Positions 30,928 to 39,852 are shown, numbered from the stretch's first letter. The stretch: 64,000 bases of DNA from Candidatus Marinacidobacterales bacterium (GCA_965226495.1 OZ245365.1:4960001-5024000); one strand, 5' to 3'. Program-made: numbers and translations. Notes: generated from the sequence alone by a model not told the origin.

Positions 30928-33900
30928 ATGGGCAGGAAGGTTTCGCTCTCCGCCCTTCTTGTGTTGGGGCTCACGTTTGCAGGATCATCGTGGGCCGATG
31001 AAGTCTTCGACGCCTGGGGCTTCGTTCAAAACCGCGACTTCTTCAGCCAGCTTCCCTACGAACATATCGATCCCCTGAGCGGGAACCTGCTACTGACGTT
31101 CACCGATCTGGTCTTACCTGGCAACGCGGGCTTCGAACCTCCGGATCCAGCGGACGTACAACAGCAAGATCTACCGAAGCTTTTCCACCTCCGGGGATCA
31201 GCTCGACGAGGATTCCCCTGCCGGCGTGGGCTGGACCATGCACCTGGGCCGCGTGCTCAATCCCGAAGCTCTCGGCGCGGGGCCGGTTATCGAAATGCCC
31301 GATGGCCGGCGCCAGCGAGGCTACACCCATGTGGACGGGAGCGGCCAATTCATAACCAAGGAATACTGGGTCTATGACGCCAACAGCATGCCTCCCGTCC
31401 TGAAGCTCCCCAACGGAGTGACCTACTCTTTCGGACACTTAGCGACACTGCCCGGGCTCGGCAAAGTTCGGTATGTCACCGAAATCTCCGATCCCTTCGG
31501 CAACCGAATCGATGTCGAATACGGGACGAGCTCGAACGCTCCACCTGAGGGGCTCTCGCGCGTCACCCAGTGGCTGAGCGGAAGCGTGAAGCGTGTCGTC
31601 ACCTTCACCTATGACAACGCCACGCGGCGCAGCGTCCGAACTCTTCAGTACTCCTCCGGAGGAACCGCCCGTACTTGGACTTACTCGCATACCACCGCCA
31701 CCTTTGCCGGCGTTCAGTACGGTCTGCTTACCAAAGTGACACCCCCGGTGGGTCCTTCCTGGGAGTATCGATACAACACCAACAAATCTCCCCGGTTCGA
31801 GCTCACGCGACTCACCACTCCGAACGGGGGACAAGTGGACTACTCCTACGACACCATCGAGTTCTTTCGGCCCGGCACGTCGACCGTGGTTCGCTCTCGC
31901 GCCATGGTCCGAAGAGTCACCAGTGGTCGCGACGTCCAGTCGGGAACTTGGGATTTCGACTACGCGCAGGGCAGCTCGAGGAACAAAACCATTTCGACCT
32001 CTTCCTGTAGCAAGATCACGTACACATTCCTAGGTATTGGCAGCGGCTCGCCCCAGCTATCCGCATGGCAAGTCGGGCTCCTGGAGAGCAAGACCCTCTC
32101 GGAAGGATCGCTGGTGCTCGAAGAGGAAGAGCTCGAGTGGGTGCGATCGGTTGCGATCTCGAGCGAAGATGAATCGGTGGGTTTCTACAACGACTCCGAG
32201 ATCTACATCCCCTTGATGGAAAAGCGCACCGTGACGCGTCGCGCCGAGAGGTACGCTACGACGAACAGCTATCGCACGACGGATTTCAATGACTTCGGGC
32301 GACCCTGGAAGATCGTCGAATCCGGAGACCTGACGCGCACAACCACTAGAGTGTTTCAATATGGTTTTGGCCCCTACATTGTCGACCGGGTTGCTTCCGA
32401 GTCGGTTAAGGTCGCGGGCGATAAAACGTTTACGATGAGCCGCGCGTTCGACCTCGGCGACGGTTTCATGAAGTCCGAAACGGTCTATGGAATCAAGACC
32501 ACGTTTACACCAGACAGTTTCGGCAACCTCGCGCGCATAAAGAATGCTAACAACAACACAACCCAGTTCAGCTACTCTCAGGGCGTCCTTAGAAACACGA
32601 CCACTCCCGAATACACCATCACGCGGTCCATCAATTCGGATGGGACCGTCGCATCGGAAACCCAGCGAGGTCTTACGACCCGGTTCGAATACGACCGTCT
32701 TTTCCGAACTACTGAAATAGATCCCCCGGCCGGTAACAATATCGTTACTGCGTATGACAACCAGAACGGCTCGTTTCGGCGGGTGAAGCGGGGTTCCTCG
32801 GTTTTTACTACCGAGCTCGACGGCCTCGGTCGCGTTTCGGGGACATCCAATTCGGTCCAGGTCAAAACGCACGCAGACTGGGATGCCTGTGGTCGGCGGG
32901 TTTATCAAAGCTATCCCTTCACCGGAAACATCAGTATTGGGACCGCCTTCGAATACGACGCGCTCGGTCGACTCAAGAAGAAAACCAATACCGGCCCCAA
33001 TACGACCATGACGTACAGCTATTCGGGCTCGAACGGGATCGACGTCACTATTGAAGATGAAGAGGGGAGGACCACCGTTCAGGATTGGAGCGCCTTCGGC
33101 GACCCGCGAGACGCGAGGCTGGTCAAGCTCACCGACGCCAACGGGGCCGGGTGGCAGTACGTTTACAACACGCTCGGAAGCCAAACTCTCTTGAACCCGC
33201 CGGGATCGGTGCCGAATCGTAGCTGGACGTTCAACTCCAAGAACCAGCTAGTGCAAGAAACTCATCCTGAAAGTGGAACGCTCACGTACTCATACCGCGC
33301 AGCAGGAAACCTCGAATCTCGAACGGACGCCGCCTTCGGCCGCACTAGGTATCACTACGATGGTAATGAACGTCTCATTCTCATCGATCGACCCGGCGGG
33401 TATGGCGACATCGCGATGGATTATGACGATTCGGACAATCGCACGCTCCTTGATAACGGGGACGCGAGAAGCACTTTTACCTATGACGGCGCCAACCGGC
33501 TCGAGCGACGAGACGATGTCATCGGCGGGGAGACGTTCGTAACGCGATATGGATACGACGGGAACGACAACCTCGAGCGAATCGATTACCCCTCGGCACA
33601 AGTCGTTCAATACTCCTACGACAATGAGAACCGGATCACGCTCGTCCACGACGGAAACGCGACGTTCGCCGCCGATTTCGAATACCACGCTTCCGGAGGC
33701 GTGACCTCCTATCGAGCCGGGAACGACGTGACTCACAACTTCACGTATGACGATCGATATCGGGTCGAAGACGTCTACGACAACGGCGGGGTATTGGATC
33801 TACGTTATACGTACGATGACGTGGGGAACGTCACCGACATCGTGGACGGACGCCCAGGGATGAACCAGAGCTACCGGTACGACCAGCTTGACCGCCTCAC

Positions 33901-36088
33901 GACGGCCAATGGTTTTTGGGGAAATGGCAGCTTCACCTATGACCGGCTCGGCAACATGAAAACGAGGACCATCGACGGCTTGCAGTCGACCCATTCCTAC
34001 AACGTCTCGAAGCAGCGACTAACGTCCTCCTCGAATCCCGCCGAGAGCTTCAGTTACGACGCTAACGGAAATCTAATTGGGGATGACGCTGGCGTCTATA
34101 CCTACACGCCGGAAAACATGCTCGAGCGTGCAACCGTCGGGGGTACCGTCACCGACTACGGTTACGACGGGGACAACCTGAGGAAGTTGAAGTCGAGCGA
34201 CGGCAAGGCGCAATTTTTCCTCCACGGTGCCGGCAATCTGCTTCTGAGCGAGTTCGAAATCGGGTGCGAGGGGGACCTCCAGTCGGTGCGAGACTACGTC
34301 TATGCCGGGGCCCGAATGATCGCATCGGTCAACAACAAACTGAGCTCGCCGACGCCGGTCGGGCCGGCCGATAGGATCTCCTCGACGACACCTACCCTTA
34401 AATGGAGCACTGTGCCTGGCGCCACGAGTTACACGCTGGTCGTGGAGAACACAACCGACGGCACGACGCCTATCAACCTCTCGGGGATTGCCGACACTAG
34501 CTACACTCCGACGAGTGCGCTCTTGCCATACAAGAATTACCAATGGCGGGTGAAGTCAGGTGACGGCGCCAACCAAAGCTGCTTCTCCGACAACACGCAT
34601 TTCGAAATTTTCACCGCACTCCTTTCCGTGAGCGTCCCTTCCCATGGCACGACTGTGTACTCTCCTTTCTCGGTATCGGGTTGGGCCATCGACCGGGCGG
34701 CATCGACCGGAACCGGGGTCGATGCGGTGCATGTGTGGGCATTCCCATCGGGTGCGGACGGCAACTTCAGCGTCGGCACTTTCCTTGGGACAGCCACACT
34801 GGGAATCGAGCGGCCCGGGGTGGGTGCTGCGTTTGGAGAGCAGTTCACTCCGTCCGGTTACCGGTTGAACGTCAACACTCCTCTACCTCCGGGCGGCTAT
34901 ACCCTTCGCGTGTATGCCCGCTCTTCCGCGACCGGCACCTTCAACAATTCCCTGACGGTAGACATCACAGTGGCGCCAGCGCTCAGTGCTCCGTTAATGG
35001 TTATCGACCTTCCCCAACCGGGGGCGAGCGTCTCGGTGCCCTTCGCACTAGCAGGGTGGGCCATCGACCAGGCGGCATCGACCGGAACCGGTGTCGATGA
35101 GGTGCACGTGTGGGCGTTTCCGCCAAGTGGGGATGGCATCTTCCTCGGGGCAGCCACACTTGGAGTCGTGCGGCCCGGAGTGGGTGCTGTGTATGGAGAA
35201 CAGTTCACGCCGTCCGGTTACCAGTTGAACGTCACCACTCCTCTACCTCCGGGCGGCTACACGCTTCGGGCGTATGCCCGTTCTACGGTGACGGATACCT
35301 TTAACAATTCCCGGACGGTAGACATCACAGTGGCGCCAGCGCTCAGTGCTCCGTTAATGGTTATCGACCTTCCCCAACCGGGGGCGAGCGTCTCGGTACC
35401 CTTCGTACTGGCAGGGTGGGCCACCGATCAGGCGGCATCGACCGGAACAGGTGTCGATGGGGTGGCGGTATGGGCATTTCCGCAAGGTGAGGACGGCAAC
35501 TTCAGCGAAGGCATCGTCCTTGGGGCAGCCACACTGGGAATCGAGCGGCCCGGGGTGGGTGCTGTCTATGGCGAACAGTTCACTCCGTCCGGTTACCAGT
35601 TGAACGTCACCACTCCTCTACCCCCGGGCAGCTATACCCTTCGCGTGTATGCCCGCTCTTCCGTGACCGGTACCTTTAACAACTCCCAGTCGGTAGACAT
35701 CACGGCGCTCCCGCCCAGTGCTCCGTTAATGGTTATCGACCTTCCCCAACCGGGAGCGGCCGTCTCCGTTCCCTTCCTGCTGGCAGGTTGGGCCTTTGAC
35801 CTGGCGGCATCGACAGGAACCGGTGTCGATGCGGTGCACGCGTGGGCGTTTCCGCCAGGTGGGGACGGCAACTTCAGCGTCGGCATCTTCCTTGGGGCAG
35901 CCACACTGGGAGTCGTGCGGCCCGGAGTGGGTGCTGTATATGGAGAACAGTTCACTCCGTCCGGTTACCAGTTGAACGTCATCACTCCTCTACTTCAAGG
36001 CGGCTACACGCTTCGCGTCTATGCCCGTTCTACAGTGACCGGCACCTTTAATCATTCCCGGGCGGTAGACATTACCGTGACGCCCTAG
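30928..36088 (+). CDS. Sec-signal Rhs/YD-repeat shell protein (about 1719 aa after correcting a frameshift near 31137); lacks the Rhs-associated core and toxin and ends in an Fn3-like domain plus four Ig-like repeats
   Basis: RBS GGAGG; signal MGRKVSL...SSWA; HIDPLSGNL...(D)LRIQRTYNS...GVGW Rhs N-terminal motif spans the frameshift; many YD repeats ending RDYVYAGARMIASV; no DPxG motif in the C-terminal region. Confidence 0.88.
34618..36085 (+). repeat. Four tandem Ig-like domain repeats of about 120-125 aa
   Basis: GWAxD.AASTGTGVD.V.VWAFP...RPGVGA..GEQFTPSGY.LNV...GYTLR.YARS; AGTGCTCCGTTAATGG recurs near 34985, 35345 and 35717. Confidence 0.92.
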
Positions 36089-39484: not shown

Positions 39485-39852
39485 AGTCAGACCAGGTTCA
39501 AAGGGCAAACATTCAAGATCTTCTAGAGGCCTACAAGGATGCTGCCGCCGCCCACTGCATGGCCACGGAACGAGGTGACCAAAATACAGCAAACCGAAGC
39601 CACGACGTCCTAGTAGGAATTCACACAGAGCTGCGTCGCCGGGGGGCGGAGGCGCTCAACGAGCTATTGAATTTGCTACAGAACAAAGACACTGGGGTGC
39701 GATTTTGGGCCGCTTCCCACGCTCTTGAGTTCTCTCCAGAAAAAGGAGAAAACGTCCTATCTGAGATAGCCAAGATCCCCAAGAGCCTAATTGCTTTCAG
39801 CGCAGAGGTAACTCTCCGGGAGTGGAGGGCGGGCCGGCTACGGTTTCCTTGA
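39481..39852 (+). CDS. Putative immunity protein for toxin 2 (DUF2019-like helical protein)
   Basis: ATGA overlap with the toxin stop; ANRSHD...ELRRRG...LLNLL...VRFWAA. Confidence 0.7.
   Translation: MKSDQVQRANIQDLLEAYKDAAAAHCMATERGDQNTANRSHDVLVGIHTELRRRGAEALNELLNLLQNKDTGVRFWAASHALEFSPEKGENVLSEIAKIPKSLIAFSAEVTLREWRAGRLRFP

Follow-up and report, generated by a model that had tools for sequence, protein, structure and literature searches.

We analyzed a stretch of 64,000 nucleotides from Candidatus Marinacidobacterales bacterium (GCA_965226495.1 OZ245365.1:4960001-5024000), hereafter the window, which is part of a 6.34-Mb single-contig genome whose relatives in a named collection belong to Vicinamibacteria and to other Acidobacteriota. 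Positions 30928 to 39852 of the plus strand hold an Rhs locus divided among several genes: a shell gene composed of YD repeats lacks the Rhs core, and two separate downstream genes, which we call cartridges, each encode a core and a toxin tip behind a signal-peptide-like segment of their own. The original prediction for this locus, made by a model from the sequence alone, held that shell and cartridges are exported separately and assemble in trans. Judged from sequence, this is a bipartite Rhs locus of a kind that is common in Vicinamibacteria (Acidobacteriota). In this report, we document the anatomy of the locus and its conservation, we show that the cartridges are under selection, and we find the genome to be free of type VI secretion system (T6SS) markers. 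Hypotheses regarding the biologic role of the arrangement are then weighed against their rivals.

The comparisons drew on a set of 43 loci taken from named genomes. The window was also compared with assembled contigs (not reads) of four public runs (X1, X2, X4 and X6), of which X1, X2 and X4 represent three studies. Sequence of the locus occurs in 20 public runs, which cover seven studies and seven organism codes, and no RNA run with the locus is among the 24 runs listed.

Genes of the locus

The shell gene begins at ATG 30928. Its frame 1 part (30928-31135) encodes a signal-peptide-like N-terminus (MGRKVSLSALLVLGLTFAGSSWA, followed by DEVF; 30928-30996) and then the first portion of the Rhs N-terminal motif. 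At 31136-31137 the coding sequence shifts to frame 2. This shift breaks the Rhs N-terminal motif into TDLVLPGNAGF (frame 1) and LRIQRTYNS (frame 2), and frame 2 then remains open through the shell body to TAG 36086-36088. The shell had been described as one gene of about 1719 amino acids; in the window it is therefore not a single frame. The frameshift site is polymorphic among public runs: at both positions, the X1, X2 and X4 contigs have the same sequence as the window, and the X6 contig has one letter fewer at 31136, which yields an in-frame allele. A database protein of 1690 amino acids (P0122) is also the in-frame form, with the same N-terminus as the shell in one frame and with 1619 of 1650 aligned residues identical. 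It differs from the window by the residue at the frameshift site, by one substitution in the body and by a 29-residue gap in the third immunoglobulin-like (Ig-like) repeat (window 35342-35713), which reflects either repeat-length variation or collapse during short-read assembly. The frameshift may cripple the system in this assembly, in which the cartridges and immunity genes are intact.

The YD-repeat body (31139-34330, frame 2), which would form the cocoon, matches Pfam RHS_repeat (PF05593; 1.3e-25) and TIGR01643 (6e-11), and a sequence search relates it to Rhs chains in the PDB (7q97, 1.2e-10; 7pq5, 6.7e-09). The YD repeats do extend to approximately 34330, as predicted, where they end in ...RDYVYAGARMIASV (34289-34330) without an Rhs core. 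The core model TIGR03696 is matched by the cartridge proteins only, and not by the shell.

At the point where a canonical Rhs protein would run into its core, the shell continues into a fibronectin type III-like (Fn3-like) domain (34331-34615) and four tandem Ig-like repeats of about 120 amino acids each, and then stops at the TAG codon (34616-36088). The tail, which is all-beta, agrees with the original prediction. The assignment of the Fn3-like domain draws on weak matches to Fn3 domains in the PDB (E = 0.057-0.41, from a sequence search of the tail), on a counterpart with 37% identity in another locus (L022), and on the presence of PF00041 in the precomputed domain list of a homologue (P0123). 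The Ig-like repeats (34616-34981, 34982-35341, 35342-35713 and 35714-36085) have a spacing of 360-375 nt and correspond to repeat families D1 and D4. This part of the tail matches Pfam Y_Y_Y (1.8e-15) and Gmad2 (8.2e-06), and atlas leads point to Big_7 clusters. A single-sequence fold of the Fn3 domain together with two Ig repeats gave a mean pLDDT (predicted local distance difference test) of 41.8, which is too poor to use. These decorations, at the chain's exit from the shell, are presumably external and may have a role in binding.

The core and toxin reside, as had been claimed, on two separate genes, cartridge 1 (36131-37087; 318 amino acids) and cartridge 2 (38501-39484; 327 amino acids). 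The junction between the shell and cartridge 1 (36061-36130) consists of the shell's last eight codons and part of the preceding codon, the TAG, and a 42-nt spacer that carries the sequence AAAGAGGA. This sequence is the ribosome-binding site (RBS) that the original prediction had noted upstream of each cartridge ATG; each start lies 14 nt after it. Cartridge 1 is in the frame of the shell, and TAG plus 14 sense codons are all that separate them (36086-36130), with no further stop before the ATG. The whole junction is repeated before cartridge 2 (38431-38500; repeat family D3). Homology between the two units starts 27 nt before the shell stop, and cartridge 2 is preceded by a remnant that includes shell codons, TAG and spacer. 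The junction, with its stop and restart, predates the duplication.

Both cartridge proteins have a basic and then hydrophobic N-terminus that ends in LANA and is followed by QRIEYYHLD, so the predicted mature protein would start with QRIEYYHLDALGS. The N-terminus thus has the sequence reported by the original prediction, and its status as a signal peptide was judged by eye and by the crude rule described below. By eye, the N-termini of the shell and of both cartridges fit a signal peptide of the signal peptidase I type, with a basic region, a hydrophobic region and, at -3 and -1, small residues. Midway along the hydrophobic region, cartridge 1 (36131-36211) and relatives such as P0005, P0008 and P0010 have a Cys in a setting that resembles a lipobox (LLGC, LLAC or LAAC). 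This Cys is not conserved in the family.

In cartridge 1, residues 1-27 are signal-like, residues 28-138 comprise the core, which ends in VDPDG, residues from about 139 to 205 are rich in Gly and Ala, and residues 209-304 match the AHH nuclease family (2.5e-15). Cartridge 2 shares the first three of these parts with cartridge 1, and its toxin tip is a different one that has no name. The motifs of the core occur in the order QRIEYYHLDALGS, FTGKERD, YFGARYY and YVDPDG, with DPDG at residues 135-138. TIGR03696 matches residues 57-138 with scores over its cut-off (2.6e-21 for cartridge 1 and 2.1e-21 for cartridge 2), and the cartridges align to the end of the RHS_core model (positions 1152-1260, of 1261 in all). 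The cores of the two cartridges are distinguished by 21 synonymous versus 3 non-synonymous differences, which corresponds to a ratio of non-synonymous to synonymous substitution rates (dN/dS) of 0.03 and to strong purifying selection; for the signal-like segment, the ratio is 0.77. Given the low ratio in the core, we conclude that both cartridges are maintained as proteins.

The Gly/Ala-rich hydrophobic module directly follows DPDG in both cartridges (ILETPWDIFNITLGLASLG...PGVPGGAG; window 36545-36750 and 38915-39120). Across the family, a hydrophobic 19-mer after DPDG is present in 59 of 112 members, and a motif of the form ET.WD..N in 34 of 112. The module may serve for membrane entry. A match to Ntox10 in cartridge 2 is below the cut-off and covers the hydrophobic module only.

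Each toxin is followed by a gene with a candidate immunity function. An Imm11-family gene (37084-37668; 2.6e-15) overlaps the stop of cartridge 1 with its start, and a DUF2019-like gene (39481-39852; 9.3e-08), which is likely to encode immunity to cartridge 2, has a frame open from 39409 and an ATG at 39481 that overlaps the toxin stop. The tip of cartridge 2 has a relative with 39% identity in another locus (L035), where a DUF2019 relative also lies behind it; this pairing of toxin and candidate immunity gene is conserved there.

Three matches to the core were found genome-wide, two of them in the window and one inside an open reading frame (ORF) of 3596 amino acids. The latter (G000:C1:3109817-3114277, minus strand) is the only other YD locus in the genome and has its own core, as in a conventional one-chain Rhs protein. 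Neither a second core-less shell nor another signal-plus-core gene was found elsewhere in the genome. The absence of VgrG and PAAR, originally noted for the window, extends to the whole 6.34-Mb genome and to TssC: no match to TssC (PF05943), PAAR (PF05488) or VgrG (PF05954) was found in it, and controls gave matches. The genome also lacks a match to TcA_TcB_BD (PF18276), a family that was matched in 0 of 14 control genomes either.

Among the remaining features, a DUF6572 gene lies at the end of each unit (37865-38242, 6.2e-18; and 39896-40240, 1.3e-16), and the pair is 98% identical over 300 nt (copy at 39903-40202). We considered DUF6572 as a general accessory of cartridges and rejected it, since a relative occurs in just 1 of the 43 loci (L029). 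Adjoining the array on the minus strand is an ORF (40218-41288) with a weak match to DUF222 (2.3e-4, below the cut-off) and with a C-terminus that is HNH-like by eye; it may be a mobile-element gene. Promoter-like hexamers (TTGACA-17-TAGAGT; 30799-30827, plus strand) precede the ATG of the shell gene by about 100 nt. They are a lead only, because the promoter scan found 2 sites versus 3.0 expected from shuffles, and the promoter and terminator scans were both at or below chance.

Shells and cartridges in other genomes

A shell homologue is located upstream of a core on the same strand in 8 of the 43 loci, and its alignment ends at query residues 1074-1077; an additional locus (L033) contains shell fragments only. 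A search of other genomes for signal-core genes downstream of core-less YD genes had been suggested with the original prediction, and four loci (L022, L025, L031 and L047) have this split form, in which decorations, a stop and a signal-core gene follow the YD repeats as they do in the window. In all four, the frame of the cartridge differs from that of the shell. The break is complementary, in that the shell ends with ...YVYAGARMIASV and the predicted mature cartridge starts at the core-start motif, with no overlap and no gap. Among more distant relatives, L043 and P0182 are direct fusions of shell and core, and in P0182 the shell-end and core-start motifs are about 8 residues apart.

Two further forms, which like the split one occur in metagenome-assembled genomes of Vicinamibacteria, are also encoded by one ORF. 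Inserted domains alone separate shell from core in L034, P0125, P0154, P0156, P0159 and P0171. In L023, L026 and L036, the inserted domains are followed by a hairpin, in which an Arg cluster lies between a hydrophobic helix and a further hydrophobic segment that ends in AxA, and then directly by the core. The same hairpin precedes the core in L029, which has no YD part within that locus. In these four loci, the hairpin resembles a signal peptide attached to the end of a C-terminal anchor. Some proteins (for example, P0242, P0252 and P0273) appear to have a signal peptide, a decoration and a core, without YD repeats, and seem to be broken on the other side of the decoration. Hairpin-like remnants were also seen ahead of many orphan cores, and in L047, L046 and L051 about 100 residues rich in Pro, Ser and Gly lie between the signal-like segment and the core.

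Split and fused forms are interspersed in a tree of cores. We inferred a FastTree phylogeny from 191 cores (117 split, and 74 fused with YD repeats), using about 110 columns and not considering branch support. The tree involves at least five changes of state between split and fused, and the fused cores of P0251, P0245, P0125 and P0244 are nested among split cores.

To delimit the cartridge family, the signal-plus-core part was used as a query, and 1453 proteins of 174-557 amino acids match it (E <= 1e-5). Signal peptides were assessed with a crude home-made rule that calls for at least one basic residue, a hydrophobic stretch of ten residues, and small residues at -3 and -1. In the best 120 of the 1453 short matches, the core motif is located within 60 residues of the start in 114 proteins, and the rule is passed by 110; most of the ten that fail it look signal-like by eye. 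Longer proteins (558-2000 amino acids) gave 322 matches, of which just 2 reach at least 183 bits, versus all of the best 120 short ones.

For the shell family, the query was the last 613 residues of the shell plus Fn3, and 2252 matches were found. A hidden Markov model (HMM) built from 112 cartridge cores matched 5 of the 59 closest shell homologues versus 44 of the next 61; in other words, 54 of 59 and 17 of 61, respectively, are core-less. The core-less shells have signal-like N-termini and varied globular ends, including Calx-beta, discoidin, FG-GAP and Ig-like domains. In view of the 1453 short signal-plus-core proteins and the 54 core-less shells, the homologues are not always single fused genes, which was one outcome that had been named as contrary to a split system.

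A two-component reading and its rivals

On balance, we lean slightly toward the view that the locus encodes a bipartite, Sec-dependent and T6SS-independent Rhs polymorphic toxin, whose shell and cartridge would be exported separately and would assemble in trans. In this proposal, the product of the first gene would be an exported YD cocoon that has outward-facing Fn3 and Ig-like decorations instead of a C-terminal Rhs core. The cartridge would supply the missing seal (from a mature N-terminus about 4 residues before YYHLDALGS through DPDG), the hydrophobic pre-toxin module and the variable toxin. Each protein would be exported separately by Sec, and the two would co-assemble outside the cytoplasm, where the cartridge core would close the cocoon and so enclose the toxin. 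Self-cleavage at DPDG would then free the toxin within the cocoon, and one shell could serve several cartridges. Export, trans assembly, encapsulation, cleavage, exit from the cell and arrival at a target are steps that we infer. Passages of a published study (PMC8765631) describe the C-terminal conserved region of Rhs proteins as spiraling into the cocoon, sealing one end of it and being an aspartyl autoprotease, and describe TcB and TcC as building one cocoon from two polypeptides.

For the one-ORF forms that contain a hairpin, the usual topology rules would place both halves outside the membrane, signal peptidase could separate them, and the end state would be that of the split forms. A broader claim, which we advance tentatively and with somewhat less than even confidence, is that a two-component Rhs system is widespread, in which an open, decorated cocoon would be loaded outside the cytoplasm with interchangeable, Sec-exported seal-plus-toxin cartridges whose genes may lie anywhere in the genome, and that hairpin one-ORF relatives would reach the same state, the second helix being a cleavable signal peptide. 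The original prediction further stated that one shell could be loaded with alternative toxins without recombination. The first part of this statement, the sharing of a shell, is a conjecture. The second part needs partial amendment, because the 27-nt shell remnant before cartridge 2 and the truncated orphan cores in related arrays indicate that cassette duplication and recombination also operate.

Several observations weigh against the two-component reading. Signal peptides were judged by the crude rule and by eye alone, and the model leaves a Sec-exported particle without a route across the outer membrane. Intact cartridges without a nearby shell are present at two loci (L049 and L060), and arrays on other contigs (L032, L035 and L044), which contain full, frameshifted and truncated cores, also have no nearby shell. 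Of 15 genomes with cartridges, 11 gave a match to a 577-amino-acid shell query (E <= 1e-10; 2 of the 11 weak, and one fragmentary), and no shell homologue was found in the other four (G044, G045, G047 and G048); the 15 are metagenome-assembled genomes (MAGs) whose completeness is unstated, and in 2 of them the linkage was already known. Some of the 54 core-less shells may have been cut by contig ends. In four loci, orphans (L033, L037, L044 and L045) have a signal-like segment (...LGLLLGAALPSAAAAVVR...) joined to the second half of the core only, from approximately YFGARYY, and these half-cores are hard to fit with a seal that is required to complete the shell. Finally, the window and the contigs of three of the four runs combine a frameshifted shell with intact cartridges; at least in that lineage, therefore, cartridges persist although no functional shell goes with them.

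The shell-less loci, the four genomes lacking a shell homologue, the half-core orphans and the frameshifted shell would all suit a rival explanation, in which cartridges are autonomous secreted toxins, the short core acts as a self-cleaving pro-domain, and shells do other work, for example as teneurin-like empty scaffolds or adhesins. The hydrophobic module found after DPDG in about half of the family could carry a toxin across a membrane alone, and part of the text of PMC8765631 reports that an empty cocoon is kept in teneurins. However, autonomous toxins would not readily account for a break that falls exactly at the shell/core boundary, for a first cartridge that directly follows its shell here and at the four other split loci, or for fused relatives of the same core type nested among split ones. 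In solved structures, moreover, core strands pack inside the cocoon (as described in passages of PMC8765631), and a core of this kind would not be expected to fold when standing alone. We therefore consider this explanation rather unlikely.

The Rhs gene could also be decaying through nonsense and frameshift mutations, and the genes after it could be silent orphan rhs-CT cassettes that serve as recombination substrates only, as might be supposed from the frameshift at 31136, from the single TAG and 14 sense codons between a shell and a cartridge in the same frame, from the shell-end remnant ahead of cartridge 2, and from the many truncated cores in related arrays. Decay is nevertheless quite improbable in view of the dN/dS of the core, the ATG and RBS of each cartridge, the signal-like N-terminus in most of the best 120 relatives, the out-of-frame cartridges of the four other split loci, and the existence of an in-frame shell allele (X6 and P0122). 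The shared frame with its one TAG, along with the existence of fused one-ORF relatives, might also suggest that read-through of the TAG produces one fused shell-decoration-core-toxin protein in this organism. This idea is very improbable, since cartridges are out of frame in the four other split loci and the cartridge has an RBS and ATG of its own. In addition, such a protein would have one internal hydrophobic segment, and by the usual topology rules its core and toxin would then stay cytoplasmic; two such segments are present in natural fused forms. An assembly artefact across 34.3-36.2 kb would have to be considered because the Ig repeats and two cartridge heads that are 92% identical split short-read contigs into small pieces, and because run contigs are short at the 35.9-36.4 kb junction as a result of repeats. 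In each of the four runs, however, a single contig spans 30800-34820, with no differences in two runs, one substitution in X4 and the one-letter difference in X6, so the turn from YD repeats to tail is not an assembly accident. All 30 depth bins were covered in three runs, and X4 covered 29 of them. Moreover, the genome consists of one contig, and the same architecture is present in unrelated MAGs. Misassembly across the locus, a possibility raised with the original prediction, is unlikely given the spanning contigs and the same layout in other genomes, and we regard an artefact across 34.3-36.2 kb as improbable in the extreme.

Rhs toxins have been viewed as one-chain proteins whose cocoon folds around the toxin of the same chain, and both the entry of cargo and delivery without a T6SS are open questions. 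If the two-component reading is correct, loading would be directly testable by mixing or co-expressing two proteins, and Rhs toxins of diderm bacteria would have a route that depends on neither the T6SS nor TcA. Annotations of Acidobacteriota contain short "RHS repeat-associated core domain" proteins and core-less "YD repeat" proteins by the thousands, and the reading would also explain these. Chosen cargo could be enclosed in such a modular scaffold, and the division into two proteins would be a natural means of swapping it. The graded series from one gene to two (direct fusion, insert, transmembrane hairpin and split) represents an unusually complete set of intermediates.

Relation to known YD-repeat systems

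By its repeats, its core and its predicted toxin-immunity pairs, the locus is a member of the Rhs/YD polymorphic toxins, from which it departs in the division of the polypeptide and in the lack of T6SS linkage. Both cartridges have a predicted core with the DPxG autoprotease motif (TIGR03696), and putative toxins are adjacent to putative immunity genes (AHH with Imm11, and the unnamed tip with DUF2019, the second pair being kept in L035). The chain is not a single polypeptide, as it ends at TAG 36086-36088 and a separate ATG follows at 36131, and it is also split in L022, L025, L031 and L047.

Canonical Rhs proteins, such as RhsA of P. protegens (PDB 7Q97) and Tre23 of Photorhabdus (PDB 7PQ5), share with this locus a YD cocoon, a DPxG core, a variable toxin with immunity, and orphan cassettes. 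They are, however, one polypeptide delivered by PAAR, VgrG and the T6SS, whereas here there are two, each part has a signal-like N-terminus, and the genome shows no T6SS markers. Canonical proteins also have no decorations at the shell/core junction, where Fn3 and Ig-like domains are found here. The Sec-dependent, WapA-type Rhs proteins of Gram-positive bacteria have a signal peptide on the YD protein and are T6SS independent. WapA nevertheless carries its core and toxin on the same chain as the YD repeats, in contrast to the split form.

The cartridges resemble orphan rhs-CT cassettes in their location downstream of a main gene, their shared core, their own immunity genes and the presence of truncated copies in related arrays. 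To our knowledge, classical orphans have no start and no export signal. Cartridges differ from them by having an RBS, an ATG, a signal-like N-terminus, a complete core and purifying selection. Standalone cassettes are mentioned in the available portion of a 2012 survey of polymorphic toxins (PMC3482391), and that portion does not mention the signal-core form. In full-text searches of literature that lies largely outside the subscription journals, we found no description of core-less shells with separately exported core-toxin genes.

Teneurins and bacterial teneurin-like proteins (PDB 9IFO and 9PT5) are similar in combining a YD shell with extra domains, and the shell matches these two structures (3.9e-08 and 5.5e-08). 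According to passages of PMC8765631, teneurins differ in having an uncleaved plug of the YD shell in the same chain and a toxin-like domain outside the shell.

Nearest to the proposed working mode are TcB and TcC of the toxin complex (Tc), in which one cocoon is made from two polypeptides. Tc toxins need TcA and a beta-propeller gate, whereas no TcA_TcB_BD match is present here (with controls also silent). We know of no Sec signals on Tc subunits. TcC holds a large part of the shell, whereas the second piece here would be a seal of only about 110 residues. In Tc toxins, alternative C subunits with different toxins share one B subunit.

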